From contig JAZDCZ010000398.1 of the NCBI GenBank assembly GCA_036679605.1, positions 64,001 through 128,000 of the forward strand: DNA of 64,000 bases, read 5' to 3'. The translations under genes and the position numbers were made by a program. The first letter of the stretch is position 1; each line of letters starts with the position of its first letter. The notes under the pieces were generated by a model. The model saw nothing but the letters and a program-made list of their open reading frames with translations, did not search any database and was not told where the DNA came from. Positions 19,594 through 32,871 of this stretch are shown here, one piece after another. This DNA is from Gemmatimonadota bacterium. GTDB taxonomy: Bacteria; Gemmatimonadota; Gemmatimonadetes; Gemmatimonadales; GWC2-71-9.

Positions 19594-20157
19594 ATGTCTG
19601 GCGCTCTCATCTTCGGCACCGCCGCCCGCAGGGCGATCCTCGCCCGAACCTTCCTTGACTCATCTCGCGAGTTTTATCTGCGCGAACTCGTGCGTCTCAC
19701 CGGCTTTGCTCCACGAACGGTAAACCAGGAAATCGACCGACTGGTAGCTAGCGATCTTCTCACCGAGCGACGCCACGGCAACAGACGGTACCTTAGTGCG
19801 AACGAAAGACACCCGCTCTTCCGGCCCATCCGCGAGATTGTGTTGAAGACCGACGGGCTGGCGGGAGTACTGAGTGAGGCACTGGGAATTGACGGTGTCG
19901 ATTTCGCCTTTGTTTTCGGTTCGATTGCGGCGGCAGCGGCCAAAGGGGGTAGCGACATCGATCTTCTGATCGTGGGAGATATCGGACTGAGGGAGGCGGT
20001 CAAGCGATTGGCACCCGCGCAGGACCAACTCGAGCACGAGATCGTGCCAATCGTGTGGACCCTTCGGGAATTCGAGCGGCGGCGTCAAGATGGCGATCAC
20101 TTTCTCAGTGATATCTTGCGCGGACCCAGGATAGTGGTGGTCGGCAGTGAGCCTTGA
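19594..20157 (+). CDS. wHTH + minimal nucleotidyltransferase (MNT antitoxin-like)
   Basis: N-terminal ArsR-like HTH (YLRELVRLTG...VNQEIDRL), FGS-x10-DIDL. Confidence 0.88.
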   Translation: MSGALIFGTAARRAILARTFLDSSREFYLRELVRLTGFAPRTVNQEIDRLVASDLLTERRHGNRRYLSANERHPLFRPIREIVLKTDGLAGVLSEALGIDGVDFAFVFGSIAAAAAKGGSDIDLLIVGDIGLREAVKRLAPAQDQLEHEIVPIVWTLREFERRRQDGDHFLSDILRGPRIVVVGSEP

Positions 20158-20584
20158 GCGTTGGTTGGAGCACGGGTGGCTTAAGCGCCACACAACGTCG
20201 CGACAGGAAGTTCGGCTGCTGCTCGATGCCGTCGAGCGTGACCTACACGACGCAGGCCAGCGTCTATCCTCCGGGTGGCGGTTTGCTATCGCCTATACGT
20301 CGGCACTGCGTCTGAGTTCAGTAGCGCTATTCGCCTCTGGGTACAGAGCTGAACGGGACCACAAGCACTACCGGACGATAGCGGCGCTTCCGCTCGTGCT
20401 CGGTCCGGACGTGGCAGAGCTGGCGCAGTTTCTCGATACCTGCCGCTCCAAACGCCACGAAGTAACCTATGAATCGGCGACCGCCGTTTCCGAAGCAGAG
20501 GCCGATGAACTTATCGATGCGGTAGATGAATTGCGTAGGCGCCTCCGTGAGTGGCTGAAGGCCGCACATCCAGATTTGATTTGA
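20147..20584 (+). CDS. HEPN-domain protein (partner of the upstream MNT)
   Basis: Helical protein overlapping the MNT gene; AY..AL, H...I, RSKRHEVTY motif. Confidence 0.8.
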   Translation: MSLERWLEHGWLKRHTTSRQEVRLLLDAVERDLHDAGQRLSSGWRFAIAYTSALRLSSVALFASGYRAERDHKHYRTIAALPLVLGPDVAELAQFLDTCRSKRHEVTYESATAVSEAEADELIDAVDELRRRLREWLKAAHPDLI

Positions 20585-20814: not shown

Positions 20815-20867
20815 TTTTAGGTGTGCTGGTTTCTCCTTACGAACTCCGCACCAACGGAGCGTGGCCC

Positions 20868-21269
20868 ATGTTGCGTACTCGGCGCTTTGCAATGGCGTTG
20901 TCTCTTCCACTGGCTCTCCTTTTTTCACAGCCCGTCTTGACCGAGGTGATCTCGGGCGATGTCTCTGTCAGCCCCGACCGGGCAACGACCGAGGCCCGCA
21001 CTGCCGAGACCGGCGGCCACAAGCTGAGCTTCACCGTCAGCAACACGGGCACAGAGACTGACACATACGAACTCATCTGTATAGGCGTGGGCCGGGTGAG
21101 CTGTGACGGTGCGAATCCCACTCACACCACGCTGGAACCGGGCCAGAGCGCCACCATCGCAGTTACCTACGATGTGAAGGAGGCTGGTGCTGGTCTCGTG
21201 CGCCTGATCGCGTTCAGCGAATCGAGTCTGGCGCGTGACGACGGCACCTACCGCATACCGGTCAAGTGA
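20868..21269 (+). CDS. Secreted single Ig-like domain protein, paralogous to the Rhs N-terminal domain
   Basis: Signal-peptide-like N-terminus; FTVSNTG..DTY...C.......C aligns with Rhs FTVKNTG..DTF...C.......C; GGAG upstream of ATG 20868. Confidence 0.8.
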   Translation: MLRTRRFAMALSLPLALLFSQPVLTEVISGDVSVSPDRATTEARTAETGGHKLSFTVSNTGTETDTYELICIGVGRVSCDGANPTHTTLEPGQSATIAVTYDVKEAGAGLVRLIAFSESSLARDDGTYRIPVK

Positions 21270-21367: not shown

Positions 21368-24300
21368 ATGTCGGCTGCTCGTAAGTTCATTATCACACTC
21401 GCTGCTCTATCCCTTGCTATCGCGTTGCCCAACGTTCTCGCCGCTCAGGGCCCTCCTGGCGGCCCTCCTGGCGGTGGTGGATCGGTATCTGTAACGCCCG
21501 ACGGTGCCACTACACCGGACCGGATTGCCAACACCGACGATCACAGCGAGGACTTCACGGTTAAGAACACGGGGAGCGGCACCGACACGTTCTTCATAAG
21601 CTGTGGCGGCTCGAGCAATGTGACCTGCACGGGGGTCAGCCCCTCGCAGGTGACCCTGGGTGCTAATCAGAGCACGACAGTGACGGCCGACTACGATGTG
21701 GGTGCTGTTGGGACGGGGAACCTAGACGTTACTGCCTTCAGCGAGGACACGTTCGCCGAGGACAATGGCGACTACAACGTGCCGGTGATCTCAGCGCTTG
21801 CGGTACCCGAGGTAGACATAACGCCCTACAACCACGAGACCCAGCAGATGGGGCGCTGTGCGGCGTCCTGCTTTGCGGTCACGCACGCCCAGGGCACGGT
21901 GCCCTACGTGAGCCACGACACACCGCGCAACGTGACCCTGGTCTATCACGGCGACCGTGTGGATCCCAAGCCGTTCATCCACGTCAACGTACGGCACCCG
22001 GACAGCGAAACACCGGTGCCCTCGAAGTTCTGGCTCGAGGCCAAGAAGGATGGCGTGTTGCTGACGTTCCTAAATGGGGAGACCAGGCTCAAGTTCACGG
22101 CAGCCAGTTCGGGTTGGCAGCGGTTGGCCGGACAGTTCAACGCGAGTTCCTACAGCACTGGAGTCTATGCCCTAGACATCATCGTTACGGCCGACTACGG
22201 TGGTCAGGGCACCCAGCAGAAGGTGACCCAGACCAAGCTGGTGGTGGTAAACGAGAACAACTCCTCCATAGCACGCGGCTGGAACATTGCCGGTGTGCAG
22301 CGGCTCTACGTGCAGGGCGATGGTTCGGCATTCATCACCGAGGGAGACGGCTCGGCCGTGTATTTCCAGAAGTCGGGCAGCACGTTCATAACACCAGCGG
22401 GCGAGTTCTCGAAGCTCGTGGCTGGCGGGGGCGGAGGTTGGGACCGCTTCTACCCCGATTCCACACAGGTGAGTTTTAACAGCAGTGGCCGGATGACCCG
22501 GGTGTATGACCAGTTCAACAACATTACCAACTTCACCTATGTCGGCAACAACCTCACCTTGATTGCCGACCCAGCCAACAAGATGCTGAGTTTGACCTAC
22601 GGCACCTACGGGCTGAGTTCAATCAGGAGCACGATCACCCCCTACCGCTACACCAACTTCACGGTGCTGTCGAACAAGACTCTGACCAAGATCAAGGATC
22701 CCGACAACATCGCGACAAATTTCCAGTATGACGGGAGTAAGAGACTGTGGAAGGTCACGGACCGGCGGAGCAAGACGACAACTCTGGCATACGATTCGCT
22801 ATCGGGGAAACTAGCGAGCGTTACCGTGCCAGCTGTGCCGATCTTCACAGAGGGTACGGTATCACCCGTCACGCAGTTTGCCCCGTGGCAGCCGGTGGGC
22901 GTGCCGTATACTGCCACTTCATCTACGCCAGCCGCAATGGTGCGTCCAGCGGATGTCAAGGGCACTGTCACCGACCCGGGTAACCACGCGACTACTTTCA
23001 CGGTGGACCGCTGGGGCCAGCCGGTGGCGTCTACCGATCCCCTGAGCACGGTCACTACTATCAGCTACAACAGCAACGGGCTGCCGGTACGCACGGTGAA
23101 TTCTACCGATACGACCGCAGTCGACAGCTTGGACTACAACTTCGATGGGCTGGTGACCTACGCCAAGCCGACTGGTGGGACCGCTACCATCACCACGTAC
23201 GGCGCCTGGGCCCAGCCGACTCTGATCCTGGGCGACGGGCAGCCGAGCCGGACGTTCAAACTTGGCACCAACGGCCGCATCGACTCGACCTGGGTAGGGG
23301 GAACCAAGTACACACGCTTCACGTACGACAGCCGTGGTCGAGTGTTGACGGTCAAGGACGGTTTGAACAATCTGGTCCAGAGTTTTGCCTATAGCGGAAC
23401 CAACGGGAACAGGAGCAGTGTCACTCTTCCGGGCGGCAGGATCACGACGTACGGCTACGATGCCTACGGCCGGGTGACCACTGTGAGCACGGCGGGGCTG
23501 CCGACCAGAACGACGTACTACGATTTGTTGAACCGGCCAGACTCGGTCAAGGACGGTGTCAACACCAAGGCCACCCGGTTTGGCTACGACGCGCTGTACA
23601 GGACCAGCGTGACCGATCCCAAGGATCAGGTGTATAGCTTTACCCATAATGCACTCGGGTGGCTCACTCAGCAGACGGACCCGGTGAACAAGTCAGACAC
23701 TTACGAATATTCCAAGGACGGAGAACTCAAGCGCTGGAAGAACCGCAGGCTCGAGAGCACAGATTACGCGTATGACGTCATGCACCGGCAGACGTCCAAG
23801 TCGGGGTCCAATACGGACAACACGACATTTGCGTATTCGGACGACGGCAGGCGGGTCAAGGCAACGAGCCCGATGGCGACGGATTCTATCTTTCTGAACG
23901 TGCTGGGCGCAGCGGAGAAGACGTGGACTCAGATGGGTGGCAAGACCTATACGCGGAACTACAACTACACCCAGGCGGGTCTGTTGGACAGCGTGTGGAC
24001 CAATGTATCGCACGAGACATTCCTGGGTAGGAAGTACAAGTACACCACTAGTCGTGGCACGCTGGACGAGATCAGGGTAGGTGGCAAGAGTACCTCACAC
24101 ACGTTCAACTCAAACCTGCAGCACACGTCTACGACCTTTGCCGGTGGAGACGTGGTGACCCGCCAGTACACGACGCCGCATTCGACAGCCAAGATCGAGA
24201 GCAACCAGGCGGGGCTGGACGTATTGGTGAGAAGGCTTGAGCACGACACGGTAGGTAGGATAAAGACCCAGTACACCGATCCCATCCCCGTAGAGTTCGG

Positions 24301-25714
24301 CACGGTGTTTGGCTACGATGGCTTGAACCGTGTGGTCAGGGACACGATGGGTATGATAGAGTCCGATCTCTGCACGTTTGATCCCGACAACGGCTACGAC
24401 TGTCCACCGCCCACGACTGATTCGGTGCGGAGCTTCATCTACGACGCCGTGGGGAACATGACGCGGGATTCGTTGTACCGCGTGTGGAACGGAGGTACGG
24501 ACGTGGCCACGGGCGCGTATGGCACCGGCAACAGGATCACCTCGTTCGACGGGTGCAGCTACCAGACCGACGCGGATGGGAACGTGACCCAGCGGTCGGG
24601 CTGTGGTAGCACCGCCAACTTCTATTGGTCGTCGGAGAACGTATTGGACTCGATGACTGTGGGTGGTCAGAAGATAAAGAATTATTACGATGCATTCGGT
24701 AGACTTGTAAAGCGGGACGTGTATGGGACGGTGAGCTATTACTGGTGGGACGGAGACAATCTCTTTGCCGAGCTGGATGCTACGGGGCAGAAGAAGGCCG
24801 AGTACTCCTACTATCCGGGTCTCGACAACCTGCATGCTCTGGTCGACCAGGACGACAGCGTGTACTTTGCCCACAGCGACGGAATGGGGAATGTTGTCGG
24901 TCTGGTGAGCGACAGCAAGGTACTCAAGCGGCGTTACGACTACGATCTCAAGGGTAGTCTGGTTGGGACCGGTGACATCAAACCGTTCAGTGACAGAGAT
25001 CGTGCGCGTTTCAAGGGTGCCTTGTGGATGGGCCCGGAGGTGGACCTCTACTACATGAGGAATAGGTGGTACGAGACAAGCACTGGGCGTTTCTTGAGTG
25101 AGGATCCCATTGGACTGGGTGGTGGTATCAACGTCTACGCGTTTGCGGGAAACAATCCGGTGTCGGGGCGGGATCCGTTGGGGCTCTGTCCCCCTTATCC
25201 CTGCGATCTGCCGGGTGTCACTGTGACCGGCGTCCGCGAAGATCCCTTTGCTGACTTCGACAAGATGGTCGGCAGTGACCGTGACACGTTCGATGGCTCT
25301 GGCCCAGGTGGGTTCGGTTGGGGTGGTGGTGGCGGAGGCGGAGGTGTTGTCAGTGGGCTGCAGCAATCGCGGAGCTGTAGCTTCAACCAGAACTTTCTGC
25401 GCCAGATAAATGAGCAATTTGACTTGGCCGCAAATGACGGTCGGGAACGCGCTGGTTTTTACGGTGCACCGTGGACGTCACCAGTCCGCCTCACGGCTAT
25501 CGGTGGACCCGATTTCGTTCGTATTCCATTGCGTCCTGGCGCCGCGGGGTATTGGCACACTCACCAGAACCCGCCGCAGACGCATCTTCAGGGTCCCAGC
25601 CAGGACGACTTGGACTTTGCGGTCAATCGCGCTAACTCAACCTTATTCGCAGTTGCCCGCGACTCGCTTTATGTGATTAGTCAGAATGGCTCTGTAACGG
25701 CATGCGGTCGGTAG
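21368..25714 (+). CDS. Rhs/YD-repeat polymorphic toxin with Sec signal peptide, Ig-like N-terminal domain and JAB/MPN-like C-terminal tip
   Basis: MSAARKFIITLAALSLAIALPNVLAAQ signal; many YD repeats; core end YYMRNRWY...GRFLSEDPIGLGGGINVYAFAGNNPVSGRDPLGL; tip E..(ERAG)...WHTH...PSQDD; GGAGG RBS before ATG 21368. Confidence 0.93.
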   Translation: MSAARKFIITLAALSLAIALPNVLAAQGPPGGPPGGGGSVSVTPDGATTPDRIANTDDHSEDFTVKNTGSGTDTFFISCGGSSNVTCTGVSPSQVTLGANQSTTVTADYDVGAVGTGNLDVTAFSEDTFAEDNGDYNVPVISALAVPEVDITPYNHETQQMGRCAASCFAVTHAQGTVPYVSHDTPRNVTLVYHGDRVDPKPFIHVNVRHPDSETPVPSKFWLEAKKDGVLLTFLNGETRLKFTAASSGWQRLAGQFNASSYSTGVYALDIIVTADYGGQGTQQKVTQTKLVVVNENNSSIARGWNIAGVQRLYVQGDGSAFITEGDGSAVYFQKSGSTFITPAGEFSKLVAGGGGGWDRFYPDSTQVSFNSSGRMTRVYDQFNNITNFTYVGNNLTLIADPANKMLSLTYGTYGLSSIRSTITPYRYTNFTVLSNKTLTKIKDPDNIATNFQYDGSKRLWKVTDRRSKTTTLAYDSLSGKLASVTVPAVPIFTEGTVSPVTQFAPWQPVGVPYTATSSTPAAMVRPADVKGTVTDPGNHATTFTVDRWGQPVASTDPLSTVTTISYNSNGLPVRTVNSTDTTAVDSLDYNFDGLVTYAKPTGGTATITTYGAWAQPTLILGDGQPSRTFKLGTNGRIDSTWVGGTKYTRFTYDSRGRVLTVKDGLNNLVQSFAYSGTNGNRSSVTLPGGRITTYGYDAYGRVTTVSTAGLPTRTTYYDLLNRPDSVKDGVNTKATRFGYDALYRTSVTDPKDQVYSFTHNALGWLTQQTDPVNKSDTYEYSKDGELKRWKNRRLESTDYAYDVMHRQTSKSGSNTDNTTFAYSDDGRRVKATSPMATDSIFLNVLGAAEKTWTQMGGKTYTRNYNYTQAGLLDSVWTNVSHETFLGRKYKYTTSRGTLDEIRVGGKSTSHTFNSNLQHTSTTFAGGDVVTRQYTTPHSTAKIESNQAGLDVLVRRLEHDTVGRIKTQYTDPIPVEFGTVFGYDGLNRVVRDTMGMIESDLCTFDPDNGYDCPPPTTDSVRSFIYDAVGNMTRDSLYRVWNGGTDVATGAYGTGNRITSFDGCSYQTDADGNVTQRSGCGSTANFYWSSENVLDSMTVGGQKIKNYYDAFGRLVKRDVYGTVSYYWWDGDNLFAELDATGQKKAEYSYYPGLDNLHALVDQDDSVYFAHSDGMGNVVGLVSDSKVLKRRYDYDLKGSLVGTGDIKPFSDRDRARFKGALWMGPEVDLYYMRNRWYETSTGRFLSEDPIGLGGGINVYAFAGNNPVSGRDPLGLCPPYPCDLPGVTVTGVREDPFADFDKMVGSDRDTFDGSGPGGFGWGGGGGGGGVVSGLQQSRSCSFNQNFLRQINEQFDLAANDGRERAGFYGAPWTSPVRLTAIGGPDFVRIPLRPGAAGYWHTHQNPPQTHLQGPSQDDLDFAVNRANSTLFAVARDSLYVISQNGSVTACGR

Positions 25715-25789
25715 AGCGGGGTGATCCGATCATGCCTGGTTGCGATATCGAGTTGCCCTTGTCATTTGCATTAGAAGGGATACACAAAA

Positions 25790-26401
25790 ATGAGTCGATG
25801 GATCGGTAGCGTCATTGCGACCGTCGTTCTTGCGGCGACTGCGGTCAGTGGTATTGCGTGTGGGCCGCCCGACGGAAGCGACTCACAGTCGGACCGCGCG
25901 GCTGACGCTCAGCAATGCCTGGTGGATGAACTGGGGCTATCCACAGTTGCCCGAGCGGCAGACCTAGTCGATGTGTTCGATCTCGAACTCCACGTGACCA
26001 CTGGTCGGGAGCAGGATTCAGTGATCCGAGGTCGCATTACCCTAGTGACGTGGCCAGACAGCACTAAAGGTGAAGAGCGTGGAGCATCACCATTCGTGCT
26101 CTATGGCTGGACCACTATCTCTAGCGAGCGAATTGGGGATGTAGTGATGACCACCCCTCTATCATCAACAGATCCGACACAACCGGGCGTCATCGGCTTG
26201 GCGGACCGTAGGGACAGTGCGATTGTGCTTACCCTTGGCTCAGCTGCAGAAGGCGGAAACTTTTCACTTCACACGGGTCTACGCTTCCAGGTGCTACGTA
26301 GCGGACCGGACGGGTTCCGCGGAACGTGGGAGGTTGCAAGCCTTCGGCGTAGGCGACCAGCAGGCATCTTCTGCGCTCGGCGCGTGCAGGAGGGCAACTA
26401 A
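25790..26401 (+). CDS. Putative lipoprotein, candidate immunity protein 1
   Basis: Immediately downstream of Rhs; hydrophobic leader ending in GIAC lipobox-like motif. Confidence 0.7.
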   Translation: MSRWIGSVIATVVLAATAVSGIACGPPDGSDSQSDRAADAQQCLVDELGLSTVARAADLVDVFDLELHVTTGREQDSVIRGRITLVTWPDSTKGEERGASPFVLYGWTTISSERIGDVVMTTPLSSTDPTQPGVIGLADRRDSAIVLTLGSAAEGGNFSLHTGLRFQVLRSGPDGFRGTWEVASLRRRRPAGIFCARRVQEGN

Positions 26402-26525
26402 ACGACGAAGTTACCGGGAGAGCTATATTCGTTCGTGAGGTAGTTGAAGCACGTGAGGTGGTAGCTTTCGCACGCAGACGCTTCACCTGCGATTCGCGAC
26501 CGATACAACTTCGTTGGCGATATCG

Positions 26526-28553
26526 CTACGGGCAGTGCAATCACGAGCACAATCAATCCCTACCGCCACAGCTACATGCCGGTGCTGTCGAACAAGAAGC
26601 TGACGCAGATCAAGGATCCGGTCCGACCGTTAGAAGTATTCCAAGCACGGCGAACTAAAGCGCTGGAAGAACCGCAGGCTCGAGAGCACAGATTACGCGT
26701 ATGACGTCATGCACCGGCAGACGTCCAAGTCGGGCTCCAACACGGACAACACGACGTTTGCGTATTCGGACGACGGTCGGCGGGTGAAGGCAACGAGCCT
26801 CATGGCGACTGATTCTATATATCTGTGGACCAATGTATCGCATGAGACGTTCCTGGGCAGGAAGTACAAGTACACCACCAGCCGCGGCACGCTGGACGAG
26901 ATCAGGGTAGGTGGCAAGAGTACCTCACACACGTTCAACTCAAACCTGCAGCCCACGTCTACGACCTTTGCCGGTGGAGACGTGGTGACCCGCCAGTACA
27001 CGACGCCGCATTCGACAGCCAAGATCGAGAGCAACCAGGCGGGGCTGGACGTATTGGTGAGGCGGCTTGAGTACGACACGGTAGGCAGGATAAAGACCCA
27101 GTACACCGATCCCATCCCCGTAGAGTTCGGTACGGTGTTTGGTTATGATGGGCTTAACCGTGTGGTAAGGGACACGATGGGAATGATCGAGTCCGATCTC
27201 TGCACGTTCGATCCAGATGACGGGTATGACTGTCCTCCTCCTACTACGGACTCGGTGCGGAGCTTCATCTACGACGCCGTGGGTAACATGACGAGGGATT
27301 CCTTGCGAAGGGTCTTTAACGGCGGCACCGACGTGGCCACGGGCGCGTATGGTACGGCCAACAGGATCACGTCGTTCGACGGCTGCAACTACCTGACCGA
27401 TGCCGATGGCAACGTGACTCAGAGATCGGGCTGTGGCAGTACTGTCACGTTCTACTGGTCATCCGAGAACCGTTTGGACTCGATGCTGGTCGGTGCTCAA
27501 AAGATCAGGAGCTACTACGACGCGTTCGGTAGGCTTGTGAAGCGTGACGTGTACGGGACCATCAGTTACTACTGGTGGGATGGGGACAATCTCTTTGCCG
27601 AGCTCGACGGTGCTGGCCGGAAGAAGGCCGAGTACTCTTATTATCCGGGTCTCGACAACTTGCATGCTCTGGTCGACCAGGACGACAGCGTGTTCTTTGC
27701 CCATAGCGACGGGTTTGGCAACGTGATCGGCTTGGTGAGTGAGACGAAGGTCTTGAGGCGAAAGTACGAGTACGATCTCAAGGGCAACCTGGTGGGGGGC
27801 TGGGACACCAAGCCGTTCAGTGACAGAGACCGAGCGCGTTTCAAGGGAGCGCTCTGGATGGGCCCGGAGGTGGATATGTACTATATGAGGAATCGGTGGT
27901 ACGAAACACACAGCGGACGGTTCCTGAGTGAAGATCCGATTGGATTGGACGGTGGGATCAATCAATACGTTTACTCAAAGAACAATCCGGTGTCGTTGAA
28001 AGATCCGGCCGGCCTGAAGATATGTTTTGCCAAATTCGACAGTGGAGACCGTGAACGGCTTGTGGATTCACTTGAACATGCTTTGGACGCGATTATCGAG
28101 ATTGGAGATGATGGTTGTTTGAAGAAAATCATTTCGTTGGCTGATCCGGGTACCCGGAGAGGTCGCATTGCACGGCTCTTGGTTGCGGCTCTCAACGCTC
28201 AGATTGAATTTGGACGGAAAATCATAATCGAAGGGGCCTTAGGTGAGGGGTCGAATTTCAGCCGCCTCAGCTTGAATGTGCTCCTTTGGAAGATGAAGTT
28301 GAAAAAATGGAGGGTAAATATCGACCGGGGCCAGATAGGACTCCGGTACGCAACTGACGACGCAATCAGGGGTTGCGGGCGGTACGGAGCGACGTGGAGC
28401 GCGGGCTCAATCTTCATTCATGAAACGGTGGGTCACGGACGGGATATCCCATTCGGAGGAGGCATCCTGGGGCAGCGTGAGGCGATACTTACTGAGAATC
28501 TCTACCACTTTCTCGAAGGTGGGCCAAGCAGGAGCATACGTTGTGGTTTGTAG
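26526..28553 (+). pseudogene. Orphan Rhs module 2 (5'-truncated core, ORF 26709-28553) with HExxxH metallopeptidase-like tip
   Basis: High nucleotide identity to 23707-25185 plus a piece matching ~22606-22702; in-frame 33-aa deletion; after DPAGL a new tip with IFIHETVGH...EAILTEN. Confidence 0.88.
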
Positions 28554-29397
28554 GTCGACCATACCATCTAGTTCGCAGATCTTGGCGATGCTGGCTTCAG
28601 TGTGTTGCGGCGTCGGCTGCCTTCAGCCGGATCGCGCGAACCCGACCCTGCAGGAACTCGGACACGGAATTGTGGAGCGTGCAATCCAGGGAGATTTCGC
28701 GTCGGTGGGGTGGTATGCCACAAACGTTCGTGTGGTTCAGAATATTGCATGGCTGGCGCGTGAGGAACCCGACATACTCGCCCGATTGGTTGCTAAAGGG
28801 CGTATGGATGGTCGGTGGTCTGATTCTACATTGGCGGATTCTCTGCCGGCCGTATATACCGTGGCTGAAGGAGATGGCCTAGACACGGCTCTGACGTTCA
28901 CCTTCGTTCGCAATAGAGGAGTGTGGAAGGTGTCCGAGCTGCTTCTGACTGATCATCTGCAGCAGCGAGCGGACTCGACGAGAGTTCAGGTACTGGAGAG
29001 GTTGGAGCGTATGTCGGCCCGTGCGGCGGGCGACGTTGGGAGCGTGCTCCTTTCGCTGGTTGTTGAGCAGCTAGATGCCGTGGTAGCTGGCGATTTTTTC
29101 ACTGCTGCTGCGATCTCAGCACATCCCTGGGCGATATCGGATGCGGCCATCCTTCGTAAGGAGGACCCGACACTCCTTGAAGCTGCCAGAGGACTAGACA
29201 CGGTTCGAGTTGACTGGATCGTGGATCATGCGAGAGCGGACTGGGTCGTGGATGAGAAGACAGGCGATTCGGTGGGAGTGGGGTTGTGGTTGAGATCGGC
29301 AGGCGTGGCGGGGCTGGGACGCGCCGTGGACTACGACTTCGTTCGCCAAGGTGACGTTTGGATGATTCTGCGCGGGCCAAATTTCCGTCAGCCGTGA
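28543..29397 (+). CDS. Putative lipoprotein with two tandem homologous domains, candidate immunity protein 2
   Basis: GTG at 28543 with GGAG RBS overlapping the toxin stop (start uncertain; ATG 28588 is an alternative); GVGC lipobox-like; internal duplication. Confidence 0.68.
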   Translation: MVCRSTIPSSSQILAMLASVCCGVGCLQPDRANPTLQELGHGIVERAIQGDFASVGWYATNVRVVQNIAWLAREEPDILARLVAKGRMDGRWSDSTLADSLPAVYTVAEGDGLDTALTFTFVRNRGVWKVSELLLTDHLQQRADSTRVQVLERLERMSARAAGDVGSVLLSLVVEQLDAVVAGDFFTAAAISAHPWAISDAAILRKEDPTLLEAARGLDTVRVDWIVDHARADWVVDEKTGDSVGVGLWLRSAGVAGLGRAVDYDFVRQGDVWMILRGPNFRQP

Positions 29398-29961
29398 TCG
29401 TTACTTCTAGTAGTTGAGATCTGAGTCAAGCAGTTGTCCCCGTAGGTGGCCAGGCGTCGGCGGTTGCGTCAGGATGGGCTTTGTTGTAGCCGCTGACGGT
29501 TTCGTCGATCCCCATCGTCGCTTGCCGGCGCACGAGCGCTTCGATCCGTCATTCCTGATGGCCAGTGTGCCCTGACAGGAGTTCCTATTTGCTTGCACGC
29601 CGGCGCTACGCAAGGCGTGCGAGGAGGCCGTCTGTGGTGCGGACAAGGCGACGACAGGCCCTCCGATGACGCCGTGAGGGAGATCGGTCGAGAGTGTCCT
29701 CGCCAGGCTCGAGGAGAATCCTATGTTGGCGAGGCGGTCTTGAAAGGGCGAGGGATTTCGTGCGGCGCCAGTGCTGCCGTGCGGCAACACCTGGACGACC
29801 CGCGCGCCAAGCGCGAATGTCCGAAAACGCTAGAGCCGACTCTGCCGCGCCTTGGAGCGCAATGACGCGATACAGTGGTCGACCACGGAATGCTGATCGG
29901 CGGCGGAGTGCCTAGTTGAACATCCTGCCCCATAGAACATTGTCAAACTCGGCACGAACGG

Positions 29962-31026
29962 CAGTACACGACGCCGCATTCAACGGCCAAGGGCTCAGAA
30001 GATCAGGAACTCCTACGATGCATTTGGGCGGCTGGTTAAACGGGATGTTTCTGATACTATCAGCTATTATTGGTGGGACGGCGGGAATCTCTTTGCCGAG
30101 CTGGACGCTACGGGGCAGAAGAAGGCCGAGTACTCTTATTATCCTGGCTTGGACAACCTGCATGCTCTGGTCGACCAGGACGACAAGGTGTATTTTGCCC
30201 ACAGGGCCGCGGATAATAACGCGGATGTACGCGGATGCGGTGAATGCTCTCGATCACCTAAGCGCGAGCTCCGGGTTTTCGATGCGCGAGAGCACCGATC
30301 CGCGTTCATCCGCGCAACAGATCCGCGGCTTGGATGGGCCCGGAGGTGGATCTCTACTACATGAGGAATAGGTGGTACGAGGTGCACAGCGGGCGATTCT
30401 TGAGCGAGGACCCGATAGGACTGGGTGGTGGTATCAACGTCTACGCGTTTGCGGGTGGGAATCCGGTGTCGGGGAGAGATCCTAGTGGGCTCACTCCTTG
30501 CGATCCTCCGGTTATCGCGCACCAGCTCGACGCCAGTGGTAACTGTGAGCTCGTTATAATTGAGCTTGATCCTGTTATCCTTGATCCGGTGGTGGTGACC
30601 GGACTTAGGGGAGGGAGCGGAGGCTTTCCGTACACTGGCGTCCCGTTCGGGCGGAACCCAATCACGTCAAGCTTTGGCCCACGGGTACTAGACGGTGTAA
30701 GTGGTCACCACAATGGCATCGATATTCGAGGAGACAAGGGAACGCCCACAAGGGTAGTTTGCGAAGGAACGGTTACTTTCGCCGGTCCTGGAGCACCACG
30801 CGAGGGGATCAAGGTCACCATTTACCAAAATGGCTATTCTCAGTTCTACGTGCATTTGCATCGAGTTGCTGACGGAATCGAGGTTGGGTCCAGACTATCT
30901 CGTGGCCAAGTGATGGGCTATTCCGGTAAGACTGGTAACGCTACCGCCCCAAGCCTCCACTTTGGAGCGTACGGTCCAACTGGGTTCATAGACCCATTAG
31001 CCGGGGTACAATTTTGTGGTAACTAG
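29962..31026 (+). pseudogene. Orphan Rhs module 3 (fragmented core, ORF 30334-31026) with M23 peptidase tip
   Basis: Pieces QYTTPHSTAK, AQKIRNSYDAFG...YFAH, then WMGPEVDLYYMRNRWY...DPSGL; tip ITSSFGPR, HNGID (HxxxD), YVHL, G.SG.TGNATAPSLHF, DP. Confidence 0.88.
30206..30329. mobile_element. MITE/REP-like palindromic element interrupting Rhs module 3
   Basis: Arms GCCGCGGAT-N5-CGCGGATGTACGCGGAT and ATCCGCGTTCATCCGCG-N6-ATCCGCGGC; sits exactly where ~148 bp of Rhs core (24877-25024 equivalent) is missing. Confidence 0.7.
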
Positions 31027-31110
31027 CATCGAGATTTGAGTTCGATCATGTGACCTCGGTTCCAATGTCGCGTTTTCTGTGTCGGTAAGTATGTAATGGA
31101 GGTTATCGTC

Positions 31111-31821
31111 ATGAGTGCACTGCTCAGACAAATCGACTCACCCGGATCTCCGAGTATCGGGTTGCCGTCGTCGATAGCAAGCACGGCTGGAGTTGCGGTG
31201 TTGGTAGCCGTCATGGTGGGCTGCGCTAATGATGCCGCGGCTGGCCAAGCCACCCGAACCAAACCTTGGCGATCCCTCGGTCAGGTAACAATCCAGCTGG
31301 GTGACTGTAGTTCTATTCCCCCAACTGGTTCCTGTCAAATCTTCTACGGACAGAGCATCGAGATAGTCAGAGGCGTGAAATCCGATACGATCGGCCCGAT
31401 CTCAACAGTGCTAGGACCATGGGTACTCATGGATTCGACCTTGGTGCTCCCGTGGCTCGTGGAAGCGGATGGTTCATTGCAAGTCGAGCTGCGCGTCTAC
31501 CATAGGGATTCGGGTGAGATCACAGCCGTAAGTATGCCGAATGATTATGATCCTGCGTTTACGGGTGGACACTTGTTTCCGCCACGCGGACTCATGGCGT
31601 ATCGAGTCGCGCTGCCTGAAGAAGATGGCAGTCGTATTGTTGTGCGTACGTGGGGTGATTGGCGACTAGTAACGGAGGGGCCGCTCGTTAAAGGCTGTAC
31701 CGACACAGGCCTGGAGTACCATTGGTCTGTCAACGGACAGTATATTGTATGGTATCCGCCGCCATGTGAAGATGGTATTCCGGAACGGGACTCGGTCTAC
31801 GTCAAGAGCCCTAAGAGGTAG
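31111..31821 (+). CDS. Putative lipoprotein, candidate immunity protein 3
   Basis: Follows the M23 tip; GGAGG before ATG 31111; hydrophobic stretch ending MVGC. Confidence 0.68.
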   Translation: MSALLRQIDSPGSPSIGLPSSIASTAGVAVLVAVMVGCANDAAAGQATRTKPWRSLGQVTIQLGDCSSIPPTGSCQIFYGQSIEIVRGVKSDTIGPISTVLGPWVLMDSTLVLPWLVEADGSLQVELRVYHRDSGEITAVSMPNDYDPAFTGGHLFPPRGLMAYRVALPEEDGSRIVVRTWGDWRLVTEGPLVKGCTDTGLEYHWSVNGQYIVWYPPPCEDGIPERDSVYVKSPKR

Positions 31822-32073: not shown

Positions 32074-32871
32074 GGTATTGTCAACTTGAGCCGGTGCCCC
32101 CCAGACTTCCCGGATGAAAACGAATACGAATGGCTACCACGGCCACCGGTTCCCTCGCGAAATCATCAGCCACAGCGTTTGGCTATACCATCGATTTTCC
32201 CTGAGCTTTCGCGATGTGGAAGAGCTCTTGGCGAAGCGGGGGATTGTCGTCACCTACGAGACCATCAGGCAATGGTGCCGGAAGTTCGGACCTGAGTACG
32301 CACGAAATCTCAAACGTCGCCAAGGTCGGCTCGGCGACGTGTGGCACCTGGATGAAGTCTTCGTGAACATCCAAGGCCAGCGTCACTATCTCTGGCGGGC
32401 TGTCGATCAAGACGGGGATGTGATCGACATCCTGGTTCAGCGATATCGTAATGCCCGGGCGGCCACACGGTTCTTCCGCAAGCTACTGAAGGGGCAGGAA
32501 GGCAAGCCGTGGCGATTGGTGACGGACAAGTTGAAGAGTTACGGAGCCGCTCGCCGGAGCATGATGCCTTCCGTGGATCACAACACGGTACGCTATGGGA
32601 ACAATCGAGCTGAGGTGTCGCATCAGCCGACACGACAACGAGAGCGTCAGATGCGAGGGTTCAAGTCAGCAGGCCAAGCACAGCGATTTCTATCGGTTCA
32701 CGGAGTCGTCCTGAACTTCTTCAGATTCGCGCGCCACCAGATGCGCTCAGAGAACTACCGACTGCTACGTGCACGATCCTTCAAAGAATGGAGTGCGGCT
32801 ACGGGCGCCTGAGCAATCCCGGCCGACCCCTTGCTTCGGCTTCACCCGGGTCCCATTAAGTTGACAATACC
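32074..32871 (+). mobile_element. IS6-family insertion sequence (798 bp)
   Basis: Perfect 14-bp terminal IRs GGTATTGTCAACTT / AAGTTGACAATACC; no obvious target-site duplication. Confidence 0.93.
32114..32812 (+). CDS. IS6 family DDE transposase
   Basis: HRFPREII, WHLDEVFV, YLWRAVDQDG, VTDKL.SY, NNRAEVSH. Confidence 0.96.
   Translation: MKTNTNGYHGHRFPREIISHSVWLYHRFSLSFRDVEELLAKRGIVVTYETIRQWCRKFGPEYARNLKRRQGRLGDVWHLDEVFVNIQGQRHYLWRAVDQDGDVIDILVQRYRNARAATRFFRKLLKGQEGKPWRLVTDKLKSYGAARRSMMPSVDHNTVRYGNNRAEVSHQPTRQRERQMRGFKSAGQAQRFLSVHGVVLNFFRFARHQMRSENYRLLRARSFKEWSAATGA

Follow-up and report, generated by a model that had tools for sequence, protein, structure and literature searches.

The DNA analysed here, called the window, is a stretch of 64,000 nucleotides from a Gemmatimonadota genome (GenBank assembly GCA_036679605.1, contig JAZDCZ010000398.1, positions 64,001 to 128,000) that contains an array of Rhs polymorphic toxins. 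Two of the three toxin tips in this array carry, shortly after the DPxG self-cleavage site, a strand that matches the TonB boxes of receptors encoded by the same genome. Comparison at the level of sequence established the anatomy of the array, the box, its enrichment at Rhs tips and its exchange between toxins, and confirmed the TonB-box feature as real, widespread and absent from the injected Rhs tips tested. The box probably lets the TonB-ExbBD motor of a target cell pull the released toxin across the outer membrane, as in group B colicins. Such a box would give Rhs/YD toxins that lack a type VI secretion system (T6SS) a concrete entry route, and would unite the Rhs and colicin classes.

Anatomy of the toxin tips

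The assembly consists of 6.7 Mb in 434 contigs and is 96.5% complete, and the window sits within a 152 kb contig. The array was identified as an Rhs polymorphic toxin locus by its YD/RHS repeats, a core ending in DPxG, three unrelated tips with downstream open reading frames (ORFs), and orphan modules. Rhs proteins are cleaved after DPxG, tips are enclosed in the shells of T6SS Rhs proteins, and orphan modules are activated by recombination. The features that bear on the box are as follows (Ig-like, immunoglobulin-like).

21368..25714, + strand: full-length Rhs1 of 1448 aa, with a signal-peptide-like start, Ig-like domain, YD/RHS core, DPxG site and tip 1 (PF05593, TIGR03696, TIGR01643)
25184..25714, + strand: tip 1 of 176 aa, with a Cys-x4-Cys loop, box, Gly-rich linker and JAB-like toxin domain (HxH...S..D residues in the sequence)
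25208..25231, + strand: TonB-box-like strand of tip 1, tip residues 9-16 (16.0 bits, receptor-trained matrix)
26709..28553, + strand: orphan module 2, a partial Rhs core and tip 2 (28014-28553) with an HExxH motif and no box (best box score 4.7 bits)
30334..31026, + strand: orphan module 3, a core end followed by tip 3 (30490-31026; PF01551, E 6.8e-18)
30580..30603, + strand: TonB-box-like strand of tip 3, tip residues 31-38 (20.9 bits; within the modelled TonB interface)

By eye, the N-terminus of Rhs1 resembles a signal peptide, and family scans of Rhs1 found neither PAAR nor VgrG, both as described in an earlier note on this DNA. That note had also placed the two motifs correctly in position and frame, and had rightly described tips 1 and 3 as otherwise unrelated and tip 2 as lacking the motif. 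Tip 1 had no Pfam or NCBIfam match, and its JAB-like assignment is tentative, drawing weak support from atlas leads to Toxin-JAB1/DUF4329 (0.80-0.82). Tip 3 is laid out as a Cys-x13-Cys loop, the box, a short Gly-rich linker and an M23 peptidase, with further NCBIfam peptidoglycan endopeptidase matches below cut-off; its box falls outside the M23 match. Since tip 3 lies on an orphan module without a signal peptide, it would need to be recombined onto a full core.

TonB boxes of the host genome

The genome encodes a tonB-exbB-exbD-exbD-like operon (contig C319) and 24 plug matches. In order to avoid hand-tuning, boxes were scored with a receptor-trained, unsupervised matrix, a width-8 motif learned from the 30 residues before the plug at 76 of 90 receptor loci in eight genomes. 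Host receptor boxes and tip boxes share one consensus (Leu, two polar or Pro residues, then Val/Ile-x-Val/Ile-Thr-Gly/Ala). Most receptor boxes scored 9-23 bits, and the comparison with host boxes that the earlier note had proposed showed a likeness in tips 1 and 3 (16.0 and 20.9 bits, compared with 4.7 for tip 2). Across the genome, 16 of 26,351 background stretches of 60 residues matched the strict pattern proposed in that note, [LIV]xx[VI][VT]VT[GA]. So did 7 of the 23 segments that immediately precede a TonB-receptor plug match, and 2 of 32 Rhs tips, namely tips 1 and 3 of the window. About a third of the pattern's 28 genome-wide matches were receptor or plug proteins or tips 1 and 3 (judged by eye).

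Many short proteins (270-650 aa) of the genome were also seen to combine an N-terminal domain, a TonB-box-like strand and a plug match with no barrel (contigs C422, C294, C346, C357, C251, C326 and C276).

Enrichment in relatives and controls

Relatives were gathered on the core alone (120 full-length proteins in the first family set), and tip statistics cover the first 60 tip residues of three non-redundant family sets from which the window was excluded; the third set retained 75 of 92 new proteins. The PAAR-Rhs (T6SS) control was made up of relatives of a vgrG-linked Proteus effector, with the cleavage site located in 90 of 120.

Scores of at least 10 bits were reached by 8/116, 12/70 and 3/75 tips in the three family sets (0.08, 0.67 and 0.45 in shuffles), and by 0/115, 0/68 and 1/72 of the later stretches (residues 61-120). 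None of 89 PAAR-Rhs tips had a box; the Fisher p for this contrast is 3e-4, a value that overstates the evidence because related proteins are not independent. The enrichment for which the earlier note had proposed a test is present over shuffles, later tip residues and PAAR-Rhs alike. A second matrix, trained on scan matches from outside the family, agreed (9/116, 13/70 and 0/87 PAAR-Rhs tips at 9 bits).

The strict pattern was found in 4/116 family tips including the query (shuffles 0.02) and in 0/116 of residues 61-120, with a few sites misplaced in this count. A wider (medium) pattern, made after seeing the data, matched 12/116 family tips (0.55 by shuffle), and a loose pattern matched 23/116 (7.3 by shuffling). 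In held-out tips from GTDB the strict pattern matched 0/64 and the wider pattern 9/64, 4 of them doubtful, and in the third, also held-out, set the strict pattern matched 1/75. As a detector the strict pattern thus had the merit of being rare in the genome and common before plugs, and the fault of being too narrow. An orphan set (strict 3/104, medium 10/104) was kept out of the statistics since its query contained the box.

An exchangeable leader

The position of the box floats from tip residue 5 to 44 among family tips. The 32 residues behind the box are common to tips with unrelated last 85 residues in 16 pairs among 47 box-like tips (a group that includes orphans from the set whose query contained the box), and the toxin domain of tip 1 recurs behind box-less leaders. 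Where the earlier note had allowed that the motif might fold into the toxin core, these comparisons indicate that the box is located in a leader swapped independently of the toxin domain. The leaders of P0100, P0443, L132 and tip 3 each contain two box-like strands, in tandem or overlapping. Pro at box position 3 follows the host receptors: it occurs in 12/23 tips of the Rhs family versus 5/47 in Bacteroidota, and in 6/25 receptors of the family host versus 0/30 in Bacteroidota.

At least two Cys residues were present in the first 45 residues of 248/261 family tips versus 1/87 PAAR tips, a prevalence that fits periplasmic folding, and the Cys pair precedes the box in 15/23 box tips. A Gly run was found in 47/261 family tips versus 0/90 PAAR-Rhs tips and was not tied to the box (6/23 box tips versus 41/238 others). 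The Gly-rich stretch to which the earlier note drew attention in tip 1 is present, but the Trp of the TolB box quoted with it, DG(S/T)GW, is missing; with the full motif in 1/261 tips, the TolB-box idea was not borne out. Most box-less tips (P0002-P0120, e.g. P0006, P0046 and P0082) have at their start a Gly run and a segment closed by Cys residues that is probably a beta-hairpin, and such recurring box-less leader types may be other entry modules.

Pfam matches were obtained in 9/55 box tips: Colicin D, Colicin E5, Cytotoxic (E3), REase-7, Ntox17, HINT and, below cut-off, Ntox21, NlpC/P60 and ParB. Since both cytoplasmic and periplasmic toxins stand behind the box, the box goes with both kinds, and the step they share is that at the outer membrane. 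One DUF6443 Rhs (L149:4337-8797, - strand) combines a box with a Colicin D tRNase domain, which is the toxin of a TonB-dependent colicin.

Spread across phyla and Rhs architectures

GTDB genomes were scanned at the DNA level for an Rhs end followed, after a gap of up to ~21 codons, by a box; the scan gives counts with no denominators, and the fixed AAT start of its pattern favours AT-rich genomes. At least 119 matches were returned. A crude rule classed 92 of the matches listed as apparent Rhs ends, with 88 of the 92 in frame, compared with ~1/3 expected by chance at Rhs ends. Again among those listed, 71 score at least 10 bits outside a hydrophobic helix (a filter set post hoc): 53 from Bacteroidota in the wide sense, 9 from Proteobacteria, 1 from Gemmatimonadota, 1 from a cyanobacterial bin and 7 others. 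Box tips in the matches listed occur in environmental Bacteroidota available in culture (Pedobacter, Chitinophaga, Pseudoflavitalea, Mucilaginibacter and Flagellimonas). A pattern scan of viral contigs gave 0 matches.

Of 16 carriers scanned for architecture, 8 contain DUF6443 and 2 FG-GAP/TcdB-mid; PAAR was found in 0 of the 16, 7 of which are cut at the 5' end. Several complete carriers begin with signal-peptide-like segments (by eye).

Export genes in the genome and in relatives

No secretion gene was found among the 24 ORFs scanned between 11190 and 42137, as the earlier note had stated for the neighbourhood; relatives do carry a type II secretion system (T2SS) operon directly upstream. 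VipB (the T6SS sheath) and PAAR were not found in the 96.5% complete assembly. Neither of the marks of a T6SS Rhs effector, a PAAR/VgrG domain and T6SS genes, was found in these searches. GspD, GspM and GspC were likewise not found in the assembly. Two other Rhs copies of the same genome follow a sigma-54 activator.

Relatives were surveyed at 20 hand-picked loci with long Rhs frames. At 6 or more of the 20, the Rhs gene is immediately preceded, on the same strand, by a gsp operon (F, pseudopilins, K/L/M/C, D) and a sigma-54 activator; gsp genes lie within 14 kb at a further 4 or more, and the activator is present at 12 or more. This upstream operon is a candidate dedicated toxin exporter. One box-tip carrier, L523, has the full T2SS operon upstream. 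A complete operon with a receiver-less sigma-54 activator directly upstream of Rhs was observed at L523, L525, L526, L539, L540 and L541. TonB-dependent transporter genes were not found as fixed neighbours in 40 scanned upstream ORFs (hand-picked from 181 listed).

Model of the box with TonB

The C-terminal domain of the host TonB (30-row alignment) was modelled in complex with 39 residues of tip 3 and with three controls. The tip 3 segment scored 0.64 and the best of the three controls 0.01; the score mark used is reached by 116/157 solved and 2/215 mismatched pairs. At least 83% of contacts are shared between model runs, and the partner pLDDT (predicted local distance difference test) is at least 58. 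The modelled interface covers peptide residues 18-31, box included, and runs parallel to the last strand of TonB. Passages of PMC11658791 give the same parallel added-strand geometry for FhuA-TonB. Because TonB-box complexes have already been solved, passing this model check, which the earlier note had proposed, indicates likeness to such complexes and not binding. A single-sequence fold of tip 3 was uninformative (mean pLDDT 41.9).

Proposed mechanism and alternatives

In the favoured route the Rhs protein would first be exported by Sec and would fold in the periplasm, with formation of the leader disulfide there. Self-cleavage at DPxG would follow, with the tip retained in the Rhs shell, so that the box would be hidden from the producer's own TonB. 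The toxin would then cross the producer's outer membrane, in relatives likely via the adjacent T2SS, and dock on a target outer-membrane channel by its shell, its Ig-like domain or its post-box segment. The leader would thread through, TonB would capture the box as an added beta-strand, and the unfolded toxin would be pulled into the periplasm. Peptidoglycan there would be the substrate of the M23 peptidase; tips with a nuclease would still have to cross the inner membrane. If import works in this way, target range should depend on the leader and not on the toxin domain.

A broader proposal, to which about even odds are given, is that needle-less Gram-negative Rhs proteins would be shielded bacteriocins, with the first 40-60 residues of the cleaved tip as an exchangeable entry module. 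One class of module would be the TonB box, arisen in several lineages across phyla to hijack the Ton motor, and the box-less disulfide-hairpin leaders would be others; in Gemmatimonadota a dedicated T2SS with a sigma-54 activator would export the whole.

Several observations weigh against TonB-dependent import. With 23/261 family tips (~9%) at or above 10 bits, the majority would have to enter in some other way, and in unbiased GTDB samples the box was rare at this threshold (Bacteroidota 1/63, Gammaproteobacteria 0/49). Unbiased monoderm samples gave 0/31 in Actinomycetota and 2/45 in Bacillota, and the resulting contrast (2/76) is weak and threshold-dependent (p 0.046 at 10 bits, 0.19 at 8 and 0.36 at 12). 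Among the scan matches listed, 0/13 from monoderms pass, and two of these scored at least 10 bits and were dropped solely by the post hoc hydrophobicity filter. Two good boxes, among those listed, are in bins of Patescibacteria (L108 and L156), a group not known to have an outer membrane. Tip 3 has ~18 residues between box and M23 peptidase, too few for a receptor-binding domain of the colicin kind. Solved TonB-box complexes already known to the modelling program may account for the complex score, and its controls contain no box mutant. The Pro dialect of the boxes was compared with one Bacteroidota genome and could reflect GC content. Finally, no T2SS secretin was found in the assembly, its one secretin being pilQ in a pilMNOPQ operon. 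Taken as a whole, the interpretation in the earlier note is partly supported.

Four other explanations were weighed. The box might bind TonB solely to unpack the tip from the shell, with the Rhs protein entering the periplasm otherwise (by vesicle fusion or membrane exchange). The matrix and model evidence for TonB binding would be explained equally well, tip 3 has no receptor-binding domain, and passages of PMC13018210 state that the release trigger of shell-enclosed toxins is open for teneurin-like proteins. This explanation is nevertheless unlikely, as TonB would need a fixed load that a free periplasmic shell does not seem to offer and the conserved post-box segments resemble channel-binding epitopes. 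Somewhat less probable again is that the strand serves beta-augmentation in general and binds another partner (the inner wall of the shell, a chaperone or an envelope protein), its likeness to TonB boxes being convergent. Alternating Val/Ile makes for a simple strand motif, the excess of the loose pattern over shuffling (23/116 versus 7.3) fits this explanation, and there are a few matches in monoderm and Patescibacteria records. A shell-binding strand would, however, be expected at a fixed place in most tips, whereas the box floats over 40 residues and is present in 9%; it also recurs in unrelated Rhs architectures, and within the genome the strict pattern clusters ahead of receptor plugs.

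That the box serves the producer, in TonB-assisted export or release, or acts as a decoy, adding to the toxin's effect by blocking the target's TonB, is improbable. TonB-dependent secretion does exist (PopC through Oar, in passages of PMC11658791), and the assembly yielded no T2SS; but TonB pulls inward, the box in the PopC case is on the transporter, and the box-tip relative L523 has its full T2SS operon. A chance by-product of low-complexity leaders has very little probability left. It draws on the post hoc origin of the medium pattern, on the 4 of its 9 held-out matches that look spurious and on the strict pattern's 0/64, and it is largely refuted by the receptor-trained matrix, which beats composition-matched shuffles in three sets, and by the in-frame share of the listed Rhs-end matches (88/92 versus ~1/3).

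Relation to known systems

Group B colicins, S-type pyocins and klebicin C carry a TonB box in a flexible N-terminal leader before an exchangeable toxin domain, a layout that the Rhs tips probably share. TonB pulls these bacteriocins through a channel (passages of PMC12927319 and PMC11658791); for pyocin S2 and klebicin C, the box threaded into the periplasm for TonB to pull belongs to the toxin itself (PMC12927319, same passages). TonB-dependent bacteriocins also share RNase domains with some box-bearing Rhs relatives. The Rhs tips differ from colicins in that the N-terminus of the leader would be made by self-cleavage from a 1,270-residue core, that no separate receptor-binding domain stands between box and toxin (tip 3), that a Cys pair lies ahead of the box in 15/23 tips, and that export would be by signal peptide (beside a T2SS in relatives) and not by lysis, through which colicins are released.

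The window Rhs has a YD-repeat core, a DPxG site, polymorphic tips, putative immunity genes and orphan modules in common with T6SS PAAR/VgrG Rhs effectors (RhsA, Tse5, Tse15), but it is without PAAR, and no T6SS sheath gene was found in the assembly. PAAR-Rhs tips, in turn, have no box (0/89), a Cys pair in 1/87 and no Gly run (0/90). A probable signal peptide, a shell and polymorphic tips, including JAB and HExxH types, are shared with the 'T2SS' class of Zhang et al. 2012, WapA and bacterial teneurin-like proteins (PMC3482391, in part). The published descriptions of signal-peptide Rhs/YD toxins, in the portions available, give no entry mechanism, and a candidate entry handle is identified here. 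In SusC-like and other TonB-dependent transporters the box consensus is the same, but it precedes a plug and barrel there and a toxin here; deletion of the TonB box abolishes the function of Bt1763 (passages of PMC7782687).

Target entry of teneurin-like proteins was stated as open in 2026 (passages of PMC13018210). The word 'TonB' occurs 0 times in the available text of PMC3482391 and PMC13018210, and the supplement of PMC3482391 may list such leaders. A full-text literature search (titles and abstract starts, subscription journals mostly outside its coverage) returned no TonB boxes on Rhs tips. The TonB-dependent route is thus known for colicins and was not found in print for the Rhs class; as a new variant it joins Rhs toxins to TonB-dependent bacteriocins.

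Remaining features and side observations

The array is bounded on the left by mreB-mreCD-pbp2-rodA and a nucleotidyltransferase-HEPN pair, and on the right by an IS6-type transposase and then accD. Its first half consists of an Ig-like gene, the full Rhs with tip 1, an immunity-like gene, the orphan module with tip 2 and another immunity-like gene; its second half consists of a frameshifted core remnant, the orphan module with tip 3 and a third immunity-like gene.

20823..21269, + strand: small Ig-like protein with a hydrophobic N-terminus, a paralogue of the Rhs N-terminal Ig-like domain with 47% identity to Rhs residues 40-140 (weak HYDIN/choice-of-anchor-D matches)
25790..26401, + strand: probable immunity protein 1, with a lipoprotein-like N-terminus (follows tip 1; signal and Cys at residue 24 by eye; no family match)
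28420..29397, + strand: probable immunity protein 2, likely start near 28588 (follows tip 2; no family match)
29916..30333, + strand: frameshifted Rhs core remnants ahead of module 3 (core-like peptides in different frames)
31096..31821, + strand: probable immunity lipoprotein 3 (lipobox-like Cys at residue 43; follows tip 3)

The gene pair at the left edge (19594-20584) resembles MNT-HEPN toxin-antitoxin pairs, and the transposase at the right edge (32114-32812) is of the IS6 family. Elsewhere in the same genome, contigs C326 (end), C406, C65, C372 and C426 were seen to carry another M23 tip and a second family of Rhs proteins that includes a long array of orphans, all of these without a box. 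Among the GTDB scan matches, L156 (a Saccharimonadales bin) and L185 (the cyanobacterial bin) share nearly the same box-bearing tip, and one of the two may be mis-binned. Contig C326 also holds a second copy of the Ig-like gene and Rhs, 88% identical, that ends at the contig end. Within the array, decayed Rhs core pieces between the modules (26540-26625 and 29916-30333) are traces of recombination.

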